Assembly (NCBI GenBank): GCA_963805875.1
Contig: CAWDWE010000007.1
Coordinates: 887,013 to 951,012 of the forward strand
From: Pirellulaceae bacterium
GTDB taxonomy: Bacteria; Planctomycetota; Planctomycetia; Pirellulales; Pirellulaceae
Direction of reading: 5' to 3'
Length of the DNA stretch: 64,000 nucleotides
Numbering within the stretch: the first letter of the stretch is position 1; every line of letters begins with the position of its first letter. Shown piece after piece: positions 4,881-63,345 of this stretch. The position numbers and the translations under genes are program-made. A model generated the notes under the pieces. The model saw only the letters and a program-made list of their open reading frames with translations, was not told the origin of the DNA and did not search any database.

Positions 4881-6074
4881 ATGCATCAACTTGCCGAAAC
4901 AGTCGGAAATCGTTTGTCTACCGACTTGGAACAAACCTCCATCGACCAACGCCTGGAAAAAGACTCCCGACCCCCAACCCCCATCTTGCACGTCATCAAC
5001 GGCGAGCATTACTCCGGGGCGGAGCGGGTGCAGGACTTGCTGGCGCTCTGCCTGCCGCAGTTCGGCTACGAAGTCGGCTTCGCCTGCGTGAAGCCCGACA
5101 AGTTCCCCGCTCATCGCCAGTCGCAGCGGGCGGTCATTCATCCAACGCCGATGGCGGGCAAGTTCGACGTCCGCGTCGCCCGCAAGCTTGTTCGGCTCGT
5201 TCGCCAGTACGGCTACAAAATCATCCACGCCCACACGCCGCGCACGGCGATGGTGGGGCGAATCGCTTCGGCCTGGGCGGGCGTGCCGCTGGTTTATCAC
5301 GTGCATAGCCCGACCTCGCGCGACTCGACCCGCGGCTGGCACAATCGCCTCAACACTTGGATTGAAACCGCGAGCGTCCGCGGGGCGGCGCGGCTGATTC
5401 CCGTTTCGCAGAGCCTGGGCCGGCACATGCAGGCCGCCGGGTTTTCCAGCGCGCGCCTGCGCGTCGCCCCTAACGGCGTTCCCTCCCTGAAAGCCGTGCC
5501 CCATCGAAAGACACCCACCGGCACGTGGACGCTGGGAACGGTCGCCCTGTTTCGCCCCCGCAAAGGGACGGAAGTGTTGATCGACGCGGTGGCTGAGCTT
5601 CGCGAGCAGGGGAATAACGTGCGGCTGCTCTGCGTTGGCGGTTTTGAAACGGCCCAGTACGAGAAGCAATTGAAACAGCAAGTCGCCCGCCGCCATCTTG
5701 ACGCTTACGTCGAGTGGGCCGGCTTCACGACCAACGTCAATGCCGAACTGGCCCGCATGGACCTGTTCGTGCTGCCCAGCCTCTTCGGCGAGGGGCTGCC
5801 GATGGTGGTACTCGAGGCGATGGCCGCGGGCGTGCCGGTCGTGGCGACGGATGTGGAAGGCGTGCCCGAGGCGATCCGCGACGGGGTCGACGGCGTCATC
5901 GCCCCAGCCGGCAGTGCCGACGACCTGGCCGCCGGCATCCGCCGCGTACTGACAGGCCAGTTGGACTGGGAAAACCTCAGGCTCTCCGCCCTCGTTCGCC
6001 AGCACGACCATTTCTCCGACCGCAGCATGTCATCGGCCGTCGCCGCCGTCTACAACGAACTGCTCGCACACTAA
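4881..6074 (+). CDS. glycosyltransferase family 4 (GT-B, RfaG/WcaL-like)
   Basis: C-terminal GT4 signature ...LFVLPSLFGEGLPMVVLEAMAAGVPVVATDVEGVPE... (E-x7-E region). N-terminal HYSGAERV sugar-donor motif. Confidence 0.85.
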   Translation: MHQLAETVGNRLSTDLEQTSIDQRLEKDSRPPTPILHVINGEHYSGAERVQDLLALCLPQFGYEVGFACVKPDKFPAHRQSQRAVIHPTPMAGKFDVRVARKLVRLVRQYGYKIIHAHTPRTAMVGRIASAWAGVPLVYHVHSPTSRDSTRGWHNRLNTWIETASVRGAARLIPVSQSLGRHMQAAGFSSARLRVAPNGVPSLKAVPHRKTPTGTWTLGTVALFRPRKGTEVLIDAVAELREQGNNVRLLCVGGFETAQYEKQLKQQVARRHLDAYVEWAGFTTNVNAELARMDLFVLPSLFGEGLPMVVLEAMAAGVPVVATDVEGVPEAIRDGVDGVIAPAGSADDLAAGIRRVLTGQLDWENLRLSALVRQHDHFSDRSMSSAVAAVYNELLAH

Positions 6075-6185
6075 CCCGAACGCGTAAGCGAGGGAACGGC
6101 TCTCACACTACCCCGTAGCGTATGCCAGGGAAATGCGGCCGATTCCCTCCCCCAAGCGTTCGGGCTAGTGTGAAACGCGTTGCCG
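6063..6185. repeat. REP-like palindromic element, inverted paralog of 63085-63185
   Basis: Blocks ACGCGTAAGCGAGGGAACGGC and CGTTCGGGCTAGTGTG match GCCGGATTCCCTCGCTTACGCGT and CACACTAGCCCGAAC at 63100-63165 in reverse complement. Confidence 0.5.
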
Positions 6186-10404: not shown

Positions 10405-10660
10405 GGAGGGCGAGGCTCCTGCCGAGCCAACGCGGCTTGGTCCAGATAATTCACCACGGAGTCACGGAGACACGGAGGAACCTTGATTATTAAGAGAAAC
10501 ACCATCCACCTGCACTGCCATGGCCGAAACAGTCTGCAATATCTGGCAAAGTATTTATTTCGATGTATGTCGTTATTCTCCGTGCCTCTGTGTCTCCGTG
10601 GTTGAATTTGTCATGAATAATCCGGGTGAGTCCGAATCTGGCTTGGCAGGAGCCTCGCCC
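10405..10660. repeat. MITE-like element with nested terminal inverted repeats, inserted at the 3' end of the methyltransferase gene
   Basis: Outer inverted repeat GGGAGGGCGAGGCTCCTGCC (10408-10427) pairs with GGCAGGAGCCTCGCCCTCCC (10640-10659). Inner inverted repeat CACCACGGAGTCACGGAGACACGGAGG (10453-10480) pairs with CTCCGTGCCTCTGTGTCTCCGTGG (10577-10603). AT-rich ~100-nt core. The same outer repeat occurs as a compact hairpin at 3523-3590. Confidence 0.65.
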
Positions 10661-22708: not shown

Positions 22709-22793
22709 ATCCATCCGCAGTCCGGCTTTGCCATCCGCAGGTGAAAAGTCTGCGGATCGCAATCCCGGACTGCGGATAAAGTAAGGGAATGCG

Positions 22794-25544: not shown

Positions 25545-25900
25545 GACTTGATTAGAATGATGGCCAATTGGTTGGTACGCCCCGGCCGAGCTTGCCTCGG
25601 TCGAGCGATGATTCTGCACTATGTCGACCGATCGACCCACGCATTTCCGTCCCGGCCGGGCTTGCCCCGGTGAAACGAATGATTCGGAGTGCAACGCCGC
25701 ACGTTCAATCATGGCTTCCACCGGGACAAGCCCGGTGGGGAGCAGGAAATTATTTGCAAGTGTAGGGTTTGCATGTGTAGGCTTAGTGCAAAATCATGGC
25801 TCCACTGAGGCAAGCTCAGTGGGGGCCAACACCAGTCACGTCTAGCCGGTCAACCCTCTTCACCCACGAGCAAGCTCGTGGGGGTCGATTGCCACTAACC
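25545..25900. repeat. array of ~6 related small hairpins with GCAAGC loops (REP-like)
   Basis: CCGAGCTTGCCTCGG, CCGGGCTTGCCCCGG, CCGGGACAAGCCCGG, CCACTGAGGCAAGCTCAGTGG, CCACGAGCAAGCTCGTGG; stems vary but the loop core GCAAGC/GCTTGC is conserved. Fills the 450-bp gap before the sulfatase gene. Confidence 0.55.
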
Positions 25901-31192: not shown

Positions 31193-32809
31193 ATGGGTGA
31201 CATGTCAACGTTCCAGATCGTAATGCTTGTGATCATCGTCGTGGGTCTGTTGTTCGTATTGTCGATCGGCATCCTGCTGCTGAAGAACTATCGCCGCTGC
31301 CCGAGCAACCGGCTGTTGGTGATTTACGGTAAGGGGACGGGGCAGGCGAAGGCGGCGAAGGTCGTCCACGGCGGAGCGGCGTTTGTGATTCCGCTGTTTC
31401 AGGACTACGCCTACCTCAGTCTCGATCCGATGCAGATCGAAGTCCCTTTGCGCGGGGCGTTGTCGATTGAGAACATCCGCGTCAACGTCCCCAGCGTGTT
31501 CACCGTAGCGGTCAGCACCGACGCCGACGTGATGCAGAACGCGGCCATTCGCCTGCTCGGCTTGCCCCGGCAGGAAATTGAAAAGCAGGCGTCGGAAATC
31601 ATCTTCGGCCAGTTGCGGCAGGTGATCGCCTCGATGAAGATCGAGGAAATCAACCGCGACCGTGATAAGTTCCTGCAGCACATCACCTCGTCGCTCGAGC
31701 CGGAATTGAGCAAGGTCGGCTTGCAGCTTATCAACGTCAACATCACCGACATCACTGACGAGTCGGGCTACATCGACGCCATCGGCCAAAAGGCGGCCTC
31801 CGGGGCGATCCAACTCGCTCGCGGCGACGTGGCCGACAACGAGAAGATGGGCGAAGTTCGCGTCGCCGACGCCGAACGCGAGAAGTCGATCCGCGTCGCC
31901 GAGGCCCGCCGCGATCAGTCCATCGGTACTCGCGAAGCCGAGCGTGAGCGGGCGGTCAAAGTGGCCGATCTGGAAAAAGAGCAAACCATCGGCGAGCAAG
32001 GCGCCGCCTTCCTGCGGGAATCGGAAGTCAAAGAGCGCGAGCGCGAGATGCGTGTCCGCGTGGCCGACGCCGACGCCGCTGCTATCGACGGCGAAAACCA
32101 GGCCCAAGCCGCCATCGCCGCCTCGCGAGCCGAACTGGCCGTCAAAGAAGCCGAAGCCTACGAACGGGGCCAAAGCCGACAGAAGCAGGCCAAGGCGAAG
32201 GTCATCGAGGTCGAGAACCAAGCGATGGCAACTGCCGCCCTCGCCGAAGCGACCCGCATCGAGGCCGAGCAACGGGCCGCGCTGGAAGCCCCGGCCAAAG
32301 CCCAAAAGGCCCGCATCATCGTCGACGCCGAAGCCGAAGCCGAACGCAAACGGATCGACGCCCGTGCCGAAGCCGACGCCATCTTCGCCAAACTCGACGC
32401 CGAAGCCCGCGGTCAGTATGAAATCCTGGCCAAGAAGGGTGAAGGTCTGCGGGTCATCGTCGAAGCCTGCGGCGGCGGCAAAGAGGCCTTCCAAATGCTC
32501 ATGCTGGAGCACCTCGACAGCCTGGCCGAAGCCTCCGCCAAGGCGATCAGCAACATCAAGTTCGACAAGGTGGTGGTCTGGGAAAACGGCGGCGAAAACG
32601 GCCGCAGCAGCACGGCCGGCTTCCTCAACGGCATGGCCAAAACCCTCCCGCCGATGCTGCAAGTGATGCGCGACATCGGCGGCGTGGAATTGCCCGAGGC
32701 GCTGGTGAAGTTGCAAGGCGATGGCCCGACGGACGTTGGCGCCACCGGTAGCAACGGCGAATCCGGCGACCGCGGCAAGCCCTCCGGCCCCACCTCGCCG
32801 AAGAAGTAG
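31193..32809 (+). CDS. flotillin family protein (SPFH/band-7 domain, FloT/YqiK-like)
   Basis: N-terminal TM. SPFH domain (...RLLVIYGKGTG...GGAAFVIPLFQDYAYLSLDPMQIEV...). Long EA-rich coiled-coil flotillin domain. 538 aa. Confidence 0.9.
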   Translation: MGDMSTFQIVMLVIIVVGLLFVLSIGILLLKNYRRCPSNRLLVIYGKGTGQAKAAKVVHGGAAFVIPLFQDYAYLSLDPMQIEVPLRGALSIENIRVNVPSVFTVAVSTDADVMQNAAIRLLGLPRQEIEKQASEIIFGQLRQVIASMKIEEINRDRDKFLQHITSSLEPELSKVGLQLINVNITDITDESGYIDAIGQKAASGAIQLARGDVADNEKMGEVRVADAEREKSIRVAEARRDQSIGTREAERERAVKVADLEKEQTIGEQGAAFLRESEVKEREREMRVRVADADAAAIDGENQAQAAIAASRAELAVKEAEAYERGQSRQKQAKAKVIEVENQAMATAALAEATRIEAEQRAALEAPAKAQKARIIVDAEAEAERKRIDARAEADAIFAKLDAEARGQYEILAKKGEGLRVIVEACGGGKEAFQMLMLEHLDSLAEASAKAISNIKFDKVVVWENGGENGRSSTAGFLNGMAKTLPPMLQVMRDIGGVELPEALVKLQGDGPTDVGATGSNGESGDRGKPSGPTSPKK

Positions 32810-32845
32810 GACGGACGTCCTCGTCCGTCCGACCGTGCACCTCGC

Positions 32846-32968
32846 GGGTGCCACGGACAGCGGAGGTGAGCGAAGCGAACCGAAGTGGTCCGTGCGGCGG
32901 CGGTGTCTCGCGCCGCCGCACGGACGACTTCGGCCTCGTTGCACTCGGCCTGCGCTGTCCGTGGCACC
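32846..32968. repeat. MITE-like element copy A (~123 bp, 16-bp terminal inverted repeats GGGTGCCACGGACAGCG)
   Basis: GGGTGCCACGGACAGCG...central palindrome GTCCGTGCGGCGGCG/CGCCGCCGCACGGAC...CGCTGTCCGTGGCACCC. Reverse-complement orientation relative to copies B and C. Confidence 0.7.
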
Positions 32969-33259
32969 CTTTCCAATCGGACGGACCAGGAGGTCCGTCC
33001 TACCTTCTTTGTTTGCACATATGACATGCACCCCTTGCATGATCGACGTGCGTCGCTATGATTCTCCCTTTCCCGCCTGCACAAAGTCAAATTGTGCAAC
33101 TTATTTCATAGTACGCACATACGGCCTTCATCTTGCACCCGTACAATCGGCCTCTCCCGCCGCTGGCACGGCAATTGCATTTGCCCAATGCATGTCTCCT
33201 GTGCCAGGCGGCCACGGGCTTTTCGATTCAACCCCTTTTTGTAAATGGAGTGACGACGG

Positions 33260-33532
33260 ATGATCGCCAGACAGGAATGTTTTCAACAAAGCCAAACGGC
33301 CGACGACGACTTGGACCTTGTCCGCCGGGTGCAAATTTTTCTGCACAGCAAGCAGGTCCGTTCGCTCCGCGGCGTGTCCGTCCGGGCGGATCGCGGAACG
33401 GTGGTGCTCCGCGGCGAGGTGAACTCGTTCTACGAGAAGCAGCTCTGCATTAGCTGCGCCAAGCGCGTCGCCGGCGTGCTGGAGCTAGTCGACGAGATTC
33501 AGGTTCCCCACATGACCGCCGTCAGCGCTTGA
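33260..33532 (+). CDS. BON domain protein (OsmY-like)
   Basis: ...GVSVRADRGTVVLRGEVNSFYEKQLCISCAKRVAGVLELVDEIQV matches the BON consensus (v.V.v.nG.VtLsG.V.s...k..a...a..v.GV..V.N.l.V). Confidence 0.6.
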   Translation: MIARQECFQQSQTADDDLDLVRRVQIFLHSKQVRSLRGVSVRADRGTVVLRGEVNSFYEKQLCISCAKRVAGVLELVDEIQVPHMTAVSA

Positions 33533-33556
33533 TTCACCTGCGATGCGATGACGCAT

Positions 33557-33688
33557 CAACATTAAAGGGTGCCACGGACAGCGCAGGCCGAGTGCAACGA
33601 GGCCGGAGTCGTCCGTGCGGCGGCGCGAGACACCGCCGCCGCACGGACCACTTCGGTTCGCTTCGCTCACCTCCGCTGTCCGTGGCAC
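33557..33688. repeat. MITE-like element copy B
   Basis: Same terminal and central palindromes as copy A, >85% identical. Between the BON and FHA genes. Confidence 0.7.
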
Positions 33689-33756
33689 ACGGCCGCTCGT
33701 CCGACCAATCGGCCAAGAAAAAACGCAAAACTTTGTGCTCAGCAGCAAAATTAGTT

Positions 33757-33792
33757 CTTGACGTTGACAGCAAGCACGGATATCTTTTCATC
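33757..33792 (+). promoter_or_regulatory. candidate sigma-70-like promoter for the FHA gene
   Basis: TTGACG-17 nt-TATCTT. A second overlapping TTGACA lies ~125 nt upstream of the FHA start codon. Not verified. Confidence 0.3.
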
Positions 33793-33916
33793 CTGCGTAA
33801 GCAAGGGTGACTGCGGAAACTATAGAACACCGCTCCCCGCTCCCCCCAACATATCCCACCTCGGCCCCCATCTTTCCCGCCCGGCTGTGCGACCTTACGG
33901 CTGAAAGTATTGCTCC

Positions 33917-34276
33917 ATGCAAGTCAAGTTGACGATTCTCGGTGGACCGTCCGACGGTCTGGAAGTTACGCTCTCTCGTTGGCCCGTCACCTTCGGCCGC
34001 GAAGGCGATTCGTCGGTGCCGATGCGCGACCGCTGGGCCAGCCGGCATCATTGCGAACTGTTCGAGAGCAGCGGACGGCTGATGATTCGCGATCTGGCCT
34101 CCAAGCATGGCACGTACGTTAACGGCGAGGTGGTTGATGAGCATGAATTGCTCCCCGGCGACAAGCTGATGGTCGGGCTAACCGTCGTTTCAATCGAAAG
34201 CATCTTGCTCGGCGACGGCGAGGCCCACGCATCCACCGAGGCCAGCAGCGACCGCCCCTCCGGCGTCGGCGCGTAG
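33917..34276 (+). CDS. FHA domain protein
   Basis: ...VTFGREGDSSVPMRDRWASRHHCELFESSGRLMIRDLASKHGTYVNGEVV... carries the canonical FHA motifs (G-R, S-x-x-H, N-G). Confidence 0.7.
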   Translation: MQVKLTILGGPSDGLEVTLSRWPVTFGREGDSSVPMRDRWASRHHCELFESSGRLMIRDLASKHGTYVNGEVVDEHELLPGDKLMVGLTVVSIESILLGDGEAHASTEASSDRPSGVGA

Positions 34277-34364
34277 CACCGTCAACACTAACCCAAAGCG
34301 CGAGCGAGGCGTCCAATGCGGCCGCTCCTCGCTCGCGCTTCGGGTTAGTCGATAGGGTGCCACG

Positions 34365-34478
34365 GACAGCGGAGGCCAAGTGCAACGAGGCCGGAGTCGT
34401 CCGTGCGGCGGCGGACTCTCGCGCCGCCGCACGGACGACTTCGGTTCGCTTCGCTCACCTGCGCTGTCCGTGGCACCC
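34365..34478. repeat. MITE-like element copy C
   Basis: Same architecture as copies A and B. Directly downstream of the FHA gene and overlapping the 3' flank of the M48 peptidase gene. Confidence 0.7.
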
Positions 34479-43360: not shown

Positions 43361-43444
43361 ATTTCCGCATGGCCGCATACTGCTTGATTGCGGGCTTTCA
43401 GTTGTGGTGAGTCATCATTTACCGCGAAGCGGTTTCACAGCGCA

Positions 43445-43650
43445 GCCCAGGGTCGCGGCGCAGCCGCGCACCCTGGGTTTCTGCACAATCGAGAAGCGTT
43501 ACGCCAAAGGCGTTAAACAAGCGTGCCGCGATATGTGTAACGCCTTCGGCGTAACGGGATTCTCTCCATCGCGTACCCAGGGTGCGCGGCTGCGCCGCGA
43601 CCCTGGGCTATGTTGTGTAACGCCTTCGGCGTATGTACGGCTGCGCCGAC
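43445..43650. repeat. MITE-like palindromic element (inverted repeats CCCAGGGTCGCGGCGCAGCCGCGCACCCTGGG plus internal GTAACGCCTTCGGCGTAACG hairpins)
   Basis: Left inverted repeat 43449-43480. Right inverted repeat 43575-43606 (CCCAGGGTGCGCGGCTGCGCCGCGACCCTGGG). TGTGTAACGCCTTCGGCGTA present three times. The overlapping ORF 43248..43664 is spurious. Confidence 0.55.
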
Positions 43651-49479: not shown

Positions 49480-49700
49480 GTTGTCGCCACCAGCTTTAGC
49501 TGGTGGTCAGTAGCGGGTGTGCGAACCTGACAGCCGGCTTTAGCCGGGCTTCTCGATTCGACTTCAGTCCCGGGAGTCGGCCTGCGTCTGAAGCCCTGCC
49601 GGGAAGTCCGGCTAAAGCCGGCTGTGGCGATCGTCGTGTTTCTGCCATCCACCGGCTGAAGCCGGTGGCAGGCACCAATAGCGTTCAATCACGCCTAATC
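49480..49700. repeat. hairpin-array repeat (CCAGCTTTAGCTGG, CCGGCTTTAGCCGG, CCGGCTAAAGCCGG, CCGGCTGAAGCCGG). Shares the GGGCTTCTCG motif with the 4592-4850 and 60455-60700 arrays.
   Basis: Four stem-loops built on the CCGGCT-[TA]3-AGCCGG theme, plus GGGCTTCTCGATTCGACTTC. Confidence 0.5.
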
Positions 49701-50703: not shown

Positions 50704-50729
50704 GCGTCCAGCCTGTCAGGCACGCCAAG

Positions 50730-50811
50730 GGGTCGGGAGTCTTTTTCGCGGAACACGCGATCGAGCGCTGAGTCGCTGGAAGCGAAAAAGACTCCCGACC
50801 CCCTCCGCGTC
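50730..50811. repeat. long perfect inverted repeat (21-bp stem, ~36-nt loop)
   Basis: GGGGTCGGGAGTCTTTTTCGC ... GCGAAAAAGACTCCCGACCCC, 30 nt after the peptidase stop. Confidence 0.55.
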
Positions 50812-58351: not shown

Positions 58352-58444
58352 TGACAGAGTGACAAGGTGACAGGGTGAGGGGGTGACAATCACCCTGTCA
58401 CCCCCTCACCCTGTCACCCCTTCACCCCCTCACTGCCCGTCACC

Positions 58445-60454: not shown

Positions 60455-60700
60455 CAGCGGTACTAGGCCCGGCATTCATGCCGGGTCCACTGACGCCGAA
60501 AACGTGGTCTGAGCCCCGTTTACGGGGCTTCTCGCTGGGAAGCTTGAGCGAGCACGAGCGATCCGACGGCTAAAGCCAACGATATCGAGAAGCCTCGTGA
60601 ACGAGGCTCAGATGACAACGCGGCGCACATCGCAGTCCCGCCGTAAACGGCGGGCCTAATACCGCTGCGCGGCGAAAGCCCCGTCAGACGGGGCTGGGGG
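60455..60700. repeat. hairpin-array repeat paralogous to 4650-4850
   Basis: CCCGGCATTCATGCCGGG, CCCCGTTTACGGGGCTTCTCGCTG, GAAGCCTCGTGAACGAGGCTC, CCCGCCGTAAACGGCGGGCCTAATACCGCTG, CCCCGTCAGACGGGG. Confidence 0.55.
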
Positions 60701-63084: not shown

Positions 63085-63345
63085 TCTGCGTGGCAGCGAG
63101 GTTCACACTAGCCCGAACTGCGCGGGGCGAGGGATGGAAGGCCGGATTCCCTCGCTTACGCGTCGGGCTAGTGGGGTGGCTGGACGCCGCTGCTACGAAA
63201 GCAAAAAGCCGCTGCTGAGGAAGTCCCCAGCAGCGGCTGAACATTCAACACCGTAGGACGATTTTGTAAATCGTCCTCCCTATAGGTTGGGTTTGTAACC
63301 CGACCTGGACGGATTGTGCTGACGCACAAATCCGTCCTACGGCAA
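63085..63345. repeat. REP-like hairpin cluster (partner of 6063-6185 plus TTT-loop hairpins as at 4429-4483)
   Basis: CGCTGCCGCGCTCTGCGTGGCAGCG. CACACTAGCCCGAAC...GTCGGGCTAGTG. GGACGATTTTGTAAATCGTCC. GGGTTTGTAACCC. GGACGGATTGTGCTGACGCACAAATCCGTCC. Confidence 0.55.

Follow-up and report, generated by a model that had tools for sequence, protein, structure and literature searches.

Here we describe three copies of a 124 nt palindromic element in a stretch of 64,000 nt from a Pirellulaceae bacterium (GenBank assembly GCA_963805875.1, contig CAWDWE010000007.1, positions 887,013 to 951,012), hereafter called the window. These copies are probably non-autonomous palindromic repeats from a family of the kind formed by dimers of repetitive extragenic palindromic (REP) sequences, also known as REPINs (REP doublets forming hairpins), a reading to which we assign a probability of about 0.6. 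Several hallmarks of REPs are found here, namely a palindromic unit with an unpaired 5′ foot, inverted dimers that are copied as a unit, and an extragenic location downstream of genes. Under this reading, the element would consist of two REP-like units placed tail to tail, with a spacer of ~24 nt between them, and folded as one long imperfect hairpin. Each unit would begin with the foot GGTGC, followed by the half-stem CACGGAC and its complement GTCCGTG; the loop that they enclose measures 8 nt in the simplest relatives and has grown to ~29 nt in the window.

Copy A (32846-32969, minus strand) lies 37 nt 3′ of the stop codon of a flotillin-like (Band_7) gene and is inverted relative to copy B (33567-33690, plus strand), which lies 34 nt 3′ of the stop codon of a BON-domain gene and upstream of a promoter-like match for an FHA-domain gene. 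Copy C (34355-34478, plus strand), a mosaic, is located in a convergent gap, 78 nt past the FHA stop codon and 12 nt past that of an M48 peptidase gene on the opposite strand. The three intergenic gaps measure 450, 384 and 214 nt, and the element takes up 124 nt of each, always beside a stop codon. A preliminary description of the window, made from the sequence alone, had located all three copies, with the starts of B (33557) and C (34365) each 10 nt off. It had also reported 16 bp terminal inverted repeats (TIRs); the termini are indeed inverted, with a length of 17 nt instead (GGGTGCCACGGACAGCG / CGCTGTCCGTGGCACCC), B instead ending in ...CACAC. The left terminus of B (33567-33583, plus strand, GGGTGCCACGGACAGCG) comprises the GGTGC foot and the 5′ half-stem CACGGAC and is kept in all families found, while its right terminus (33674-33690, plus strand) reads CGCTGTCCGTGGCACAC. 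Further inside, the inverted repeat GTCGTCCGTG (33608-33617, plus strand) and its partner CACGGACCAC (33642-33651), with one mismatch, enclose a 24 nt centre (33618-33641, plus strand, CGGCGGCG-CGAGACAC-CGCCGCCG) that is common to A and B and has its loop flipped in C. The terminal 16-mer occurs six times in the window compared to 0.15 expected, and the central motif has six exact occurrences. A search of the 64 kb window with a profile hidden Markov model of the arm (nhmmer --max) returned the six arms of A, B and C and no further copy or solo arm.

Copy A is 98% complementary to B across 128 nt, and the two have been copied very recently from one another. Three copies within 1.6 kb, none in the other 62 kb and a common centre could suggest a purely local triplication in a source genome that holds no mobile family. 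We consider this very improbable. The similarity among A, B and C ends exactly at the termini and the flanking DNA is unrelated, which indicates three separate insertions rather than a segmental triplication; furthermore, one copy is inverted, and large families with these termini and inner repeats exist elsewhere. In copy C, the arm middles are oriented as in B, but the mismatch at position 18 and the loop of the centre follow A read on the plus strand, and these opposite orientations point to a copy that was patched by recombination or gene conversion between copies in both orientations.

We searched species-representative contigs (one genome per species) for the pattern CCACGGACAGCG-N(75-105)-CGCTGTCCGTGG and found 87 loci with paired termini, ~70 of them in a single Phycisphaerales metagenome-assembled genome (MAG), SS_bin_71, and the remaining ones in Phycisphaeraceae and Planctomycetota MAGs. 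Furthermore, the terminus together with the inner repeat GTCGTCCGTG was found at 89 metagenome loci, mostly from one organism (~60 copies) with contigs of up to 143 kb. The flanks are different at every family copy. Two classes of Planctomycetota share the termini, the window organism being assigned to a class other than that of the MAGs by the source names of FHA homologues. These are dispersed, short, non-coding, TIR-bounded repeats with the same termini in other genomes, as the mobile family proposed in the preliminary description would lead one to expect. Intact pairs amount to 71 compared to 18 solo arms, and decayed copies are rare. No element was found in viral contigs, where 20 single chance matches lie within coding DNA, and plasmids gave no match. 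The candidate members L041 (Ectothiorhodospiraceae) and L017 were discarded as chance or coding matches. The open reading frames (ORFs) predicted on the elements had been called artefacts of the repeat, and this holds: every frame is open, and a search of 5.8 billion predicted proteins with an element-encoded peptide, intended as a census of copies, provided no candidate.

Some irregular members deserve mention. In SS_bin_71, tandem 22 nt duplications of the terminal half unit GGTGCCACGGACAGCGAAGCCC stand directly before full elements (L011:3785-3850, L010:6045-6090, L060:3997-4040 and L084:5306-5350); partial and nested copies occur there too, and many contigs end within the repeat. On contig L127 (Ga0137405_1384735), a ~205 nt member with a long AT-richer centre is present twice, at 516-721 and 5689-5895, as exact inverted copies that include the flanks. 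This contig was set aside as an apparent fold-back artefact of the assembly.

The relatives also reveal the anatomy of the unit. In SS_bin_71 the arm reads GGTGC-CACGGAC-AGCGAAGC-GTCCGTG, which is a REP-sized unit with a 5′ foot, a 7 bp stem and an 8 nt loop. A second family, present in the metagenomic organism Ga0163150, is built from GGTGC-CACGGGTC-GGCTCGGC-GACCCGTG units with an 8 bp stem and an 8 nt loop, which stand tail to tail with a variable spacer of 8-30 nt between them (L134:1671-1738, L192:2454-2521, L181:620-700 and 9 more). The second family and the window element have their first 10 nt in common (GGTGCCACGG), and one second-family copy is nested in the centre of a window-type element. 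The window type has the same foot and half-stems, with the unit loop expanded to ~29 nt, and its two units flank a centre of ~24 nt. Every copy has the foot (G)GGTGC, and the family ends sharply at ...GGCACC(C), conservation stopping beyond.

A size of ~100-125 nt, sharp TIRs, many dispersed copies and nested insertions are also what would be expected of a classical miniature inverted-repeat transposable element (MITE), that is, an internally deleted derivative of an insertion sequence (IS) moved by a DDE transposase that binds the 17 nt TIRs. We looked for target-site duplications in 84 copies at offsets of 0-7 and lengths of 2-8 and found none, the counts being equal to the expectation from shuffled partners. 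Furthermore, neither a longer element nor a transposase-enclosing TIR pair with these termini was found in the window or in the 1.6 Mb of loci that we fetched, and neither obligatory heterodimer arms, described below, nor footed REP-sized units are features of MITEs. We therefore regard a MITE as improbable; the label "MITE-like" used in the preliminary description fits insofar as the repeats are short, TIR-bounded and dispersed, and is not supported in the strict sense, with no target-site duplication in the 84 copies and no parent IS in the window or the fetched loci.

The two arms of an element are never of the same type, with 0 homodimers in 44 elements of one organism, and the variable arm positions pair 0-17% of the time compared to ~50% expected. 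Two single mismatches flank conserved 5 bp helices, and this enforced imperfection is present in the window copies too. The centres have a modal length of 24 nt and are poorly conserved in other genomes. They gave no BLAST match to each other, to their own flanks or to other DNA in the 1.6 Mb, and we consequently rejected the idea that a centre is copied from its flanks or from other DNA. Oriented by arm type, the centres show an edge consensus and a clear residual similarity (mean pairwise score -3.26 versus -5.36 +/- 0.19 when shuffled), on which grounds we rejected random or acquired "spacers". This residual similarity indicates that whole units are copied with the centre under relaxed constraint, conservation declining from the invariant ends to a weakly homologous centre.

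The narrow distribution of loop lengths (mode 24) and the high diversity of loop sequences could also suggest small-RNA or guide-like hairpins, in which the conserved arms would present a copy-specific loop of ~24 nt for pairing with targets. Such a function is hardly credible in view of centres that match nothing else in the 1.6 Mb, their own neighbourhoods included, and whose residual homology is the one expected from decay and not from acquisition. There is also no strand or orientation bias and no match in Rfam.

All element types fold into one long hairpin. For the window copies, the predicted RNA fold has a free energy of -95 to -108 kcal/mol (z -10 to -13 compared to shuffles, on both strands) and the DNA fold a z of -8 to -11. 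The hairpin consists of a 17 bp terminal stem, a single mismatch (C.C in A on the minus strand and in B, G.G in C), partly paired arm middles, a 23 bp inner stem and an 8 nt loop. The structure had been described as a long perfect hairpin; it is long and far more stable than shuffles, but it is imperfect, given the mismatch and the partly paired arm middles. The further suggestion of a structured RNA, which compensatory changes among copies were to check, found no support. The terminal 28 bp are invariant in 66 SS-type copies, we found 0 compensatory pairs and no covariation supporting an RNA structure (the stems being invariant), and the variable arm positions are anti-correlated, that is, kept unpaired. 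Rfam returned 0 matches at the gathering threshold, with only generic long-hairpin models of miRNA precursors far below it.

None of A, B and C was called in a scan for intrinsic terminators, and no U-tract or T-run follows them. Of the terminator or insulator function envisaged earlier, an intrinsic terminator thus drops out, and a role at the 3′ end remains plausible from the position of more than 100 members at a median of 21-38 nt past stop codons. To locate the members relative to genes, we used a crude gene finder based on the G+C content of third codon positions (GC3), which reproduces the genes of the window. In SS_bin_71, 36 members are in convergent, 29 in tandem and 2 in divergent gaps, at a median of 38 nt from a stop codon, and the metagenomic organism shows a similar layout (14, 13 and 1, respectively; median 21 nt) with no evident orientation bias relative to the upstream gene. 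In the window, A and B differ in orientation relative to the upstream gene, though both follow plus-strand genes. Eight members lie inside long GC3-supported ORFs (L040:3249-3353, L042:69-178, L086:7823-7932, L130, L137, L153, L157 and L162), and these may be either intragenic insertions, as reported for REPs, or artefacts of the gene finder.

By Pfam, the neighbourhood encodes a YqiJ_N protein, a flotillin-like Band_7/SPFH protein, a BON-domain protein (33260-33532, plus strand, 90 aa, supported also by synteny), an FHA-domain protein (33917-34276, plus strand, 119 aa) and, on the opposite strand, a Peptidase_M48, in line with the gene names given before (flotillin, BON, FHA and M48 peptidase). 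A sigma-70-like promoter match for the FHA gene (TTGACG-17-TATCTT, 33758-33786, plus strand) is located downstream of B, is conserved in the relative L091 and has a similar counterpart in a second relative, L088. In L088, with an FHA identity of 51%, the BON gene is followed by the FHA gene after a spacer of 237 nt that holds no element. L091 is the closest relative among 5.8 billion proteins (88% identity), with ~90% DNA identity over both genes and both upstream regions. The sole exception is the position directly after the BON stop codon, which is occupied by B in the window and by an unrelated palindrome of ~150 nt (GTAGGGTGTGTG... termini) in L091. It follows that the elements postdate the split of these genomes and that the site just past the stop codon has been occupied repeatedly. 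The synteny in L088 and the unrelated palindrome in L091 leave the element-mediated capture or duplication of BON and FHA that had been proposed without support: the two genes are ordinary conserved neighbours and not mobile-element cargo. Separately, the non-coding DNA upstream of BON (33005-33259) and of FHA (33700-33916) is as conserved as the coding DNA relative to L091 (~90%), and it contains TGCA-rich inverted repeats (for example TTGCACAAAGTCAAATTGTGCAA at 33077-33099) that may be operators or leader RNA.

An alternative is that the element is a host-functional cis element kept by selection, whose arms would be a site for a host protein, or whose hairpin, in a phylum with few canonical terminators, would be a terminator that lacks a U-tract or an mRNA 3′ stabiliser, mobility being secondary. 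Bacterial interspersed mosaic elements (BIMEs), for instance, bind gyrase or IHF. The very tight link to stop codons with avoidance of divergent gaps, the near-invariance of the arms despite diverged centres, the scarcity of decayed copies, the sharing of termini by two Planctomycetota classes and the position of B, past the BON stop codon and ahead of the FHA promoter match, all agree with such a function. However, the site carries another palindrome in L091, the nearest relative, and none in the more distant L088, so that the specific sequence is dispensable; both orientations follow same-strand genes (A versus B), and neither a U-tract nor covariation was found. We consider this explanation unlikely, while noting that it is compatible with the REPIN reading and does not exclude it.

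A bolder version, which we rate as quite unlikely, takes the GGTGC hairpins beyond selfish REPINs, as a Planctomycetota-wide, host-maintained 3′ end module of fixed design that would be read by a dedicated protein. The design would be a 17 bp stem, a mismatch, a 5 bp helix, an obligatory internal loop, a second 5 bp helix, a second mismatch, an 11 bp stem and a free loop of ~24 nt. Class 3, the atypical Y1 class of planctomycetes, might have supplied the reader in the form of a domesticated enzyme. If true, the module would replace canonical terminators in the phylum, or would act as a topological barrier at the ends of convergent genes.

Under the REPIN reading, whole units would be copied by a trans-acting enzyme that reads the invariant foot and stem, most likely a single-stranded DNA transposase of the HUH/Y1 superfamily and of the REP-associated tyrosine transposase (RAYT) type. 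An enzyme of this type would fit the lack of target duplication upon insertion and the requirement that the two arms differ. Copies would then persist where they are least harmful or even useful, right after stop codons and between convergent or tandem genes, and the stable hairpin could serve there as a 3′ end structure, whether as a transcript end, a barrier to exonucleases or an insulator. In the window, A, B and C would have been inserted into an older BON-FHA gene pair.

Several observations weigh against this reading. No Y1/HUH transposase was found, either in the window or in the ~1.6 Mb of fetched loci, which represent a fraction of each genome. We used tblastn with E. coli YafM and IS608 TnpA as queries and scanned the window and all loci for HUH...Y motifs of class 2 (Y..NP) and class 3 (YV..EQ; NHVH ... 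YV..EQ). Only chance matches resulted, such as one at 1079-1219 of the window (E 0.16) that contains stop codons, and the ORFs between close element pairs (L075, L009 and L140) encode ordinary enzymes. The foot is GGTGC and departs in this from the REP consensus, and the window-type arm alone is a weak hairpin with a 7 bp stem and a loop of ~29 nt. In the 64 kb window, only three copies are seen, all within 1.6 kb. The arms are almost identical and the centres strongly diverged, which simple recent copying is insufficient to explain without selection or gene conversion; the contrast may stem from gene conversion or from selection acting on the individual copies, which leaves room for the host-functional reading. 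Furthermore, the searches of the collections demanded exact arm cores, so the apparent invariance of those bases is inflated.

We compared the family to known systems, with REPs and REPINs as the closest ones. REPs lie downstream of genes, between convergent or unidirectional ORFs, and form tail-to-tail dimers with variable spacers of similar length, with a preference for heterodimers that is unexplained (Di Nocera et al. 2013, PMC3733652). Tail-to-tail dimers, heterodimers, a location downstream of genes and the lack of target duplication are shared by the present family, as are the small footed hairpins and the joining of inverted units in one larger hairpin that are seen in REP dimers and BIMEs built from GTAG- or CGTC-tagged REPs (PMC3733652; E. 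coli REP/BIME). The foot, however, is GGTGC in place of GTAG or CGTC, and the window type has a longer unit loop of ~29 nt. The canonical REP foot is given as GT[AG]G (PMC6006769). Whereas typical REPs are genus-specific, here two classes of one phylum have conserved termini, and no repeat-flanked RAYT gene is seen in the window or the fetched loci. With REPINs (Bertels and Rainey 2011, PMC3116915), the family shares two inverted REPs and a spacer copied as a unit of ~100-125 nt, ends that are better conserved than the middle, and tens to hundreds of copies per genome. Compared to the REPINs of Pseudomonas (PMC3116915), the spacer is much more diverged than reported there, and the cognate single-copy RAYT is an assumption in our case.

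Planctomycetes have been reported to carry many RAYT/TIRYT genes, R. baltica among them (PMC3733652), and atypical "REPtron-like" loci with class 3 TnpA_Y1 are found mainly in Planctomycetes and Acidobacteria (Quentin et al. 2018, PMC6006769). Compared by description only, these class 3 loci (PMC6006769) come from the same phylum and likewise have atypical high-copy secondary structures without a GT[AG]G foot, but their reported foot is CnGA. The class 3 Y1 motif (NHVH ... YV..EQ) was not found in the window or in the fetched loci. The Correia/NEMIS elements of Neisseria, ERIC, RUP and other bacterial MITEs resemble the family as intergenic palindromes of ~100-150 nt with TIRs; once transcribed, such elements can work as terminators or as sites of processing. 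Correia elements have 26 bp TIRs and create a TA duplication; the present family is without target duplication and its TIRs are unrelated in sequence. An integron attC site or cassette was rejected, since the termini are unrelated to GTTRRRY cores, A is inverted, and relatives that lack the element still show BON and FHA each with its own conserved upstream region. The analogy with pdif modules was rejected on sequence, orientation and synteny.

The window contains other palindromic repeats as well. Copy A is situated between two small GTAG-footed hairpins that form an inverted pair, one at 32806-32830 (plus strand, GTAGGACGGAC-GTCCTC-GTCCGTCC) and its partner at 32979-33003 (minus strand, the plus strand reading GGACGGACCAGGAGGTCCGTCCTAC), the latter followed by a T-rich tail. 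Both were flagged as terminator-like, and the flag holds on both strands; at the equivalent place, L091 has a GTAG-footed hairpin with a different stem. Hairpins of this canonical REP-like kind are also present at 63253-63340. Between the FHA stop codon and C, an unrelated hairpin repeat (CTAACCCAAAGCGCGAGCGAGG ... CCTCGCTCGCGCTTCGGGTTAG, 34288-34348, no strand assigned) has a related copy at 63150-63171. Its family, CTAACCC(R)AAGCG(Y)(R)AGCGAGG, also includes 6067-6172 and L091:1296-1321; this type of repeat follows the FHA stop codon both in the window and in L091, and the L091 contig breaks within it. More unrelated intergenic palindromes are located at 10453-10602, 22713-22777, 25650-25741, 43420-43633, 49530-49625, 50729-50802, 58352-58432 and 60508-60612, and they include a 150 nt element with CACGGAG-repeat termini and a GTGACA-repeat hairpin. 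This genome is rich in palindromic intergenic repeats.

Repeats of this type are barely catalogued in Planctomycetota, and the GGTGC-footed REP/REPIN-type superfamily is apparently new to the literature. When the literature was searched by sequence, the sole result was the REST-binding site RE1/NRSE of mammals: CCACGGACAGCGC, at 32851-32863 and in the other termini, is identical to the core of the RE1/NRSE consensus, a coincidence because of which the search gave neuroscience papers only. The family explains why contigs break and spurious ORFs arise in these genomes, and it offers a defined recognition sequence with which a cognate enzyme can be sought, and the enforced mismatches of its arms, together with the strict placement 10-50 nt past stop codons, constitute constraints on the recognition or the tolerance of REP-type hairpins.

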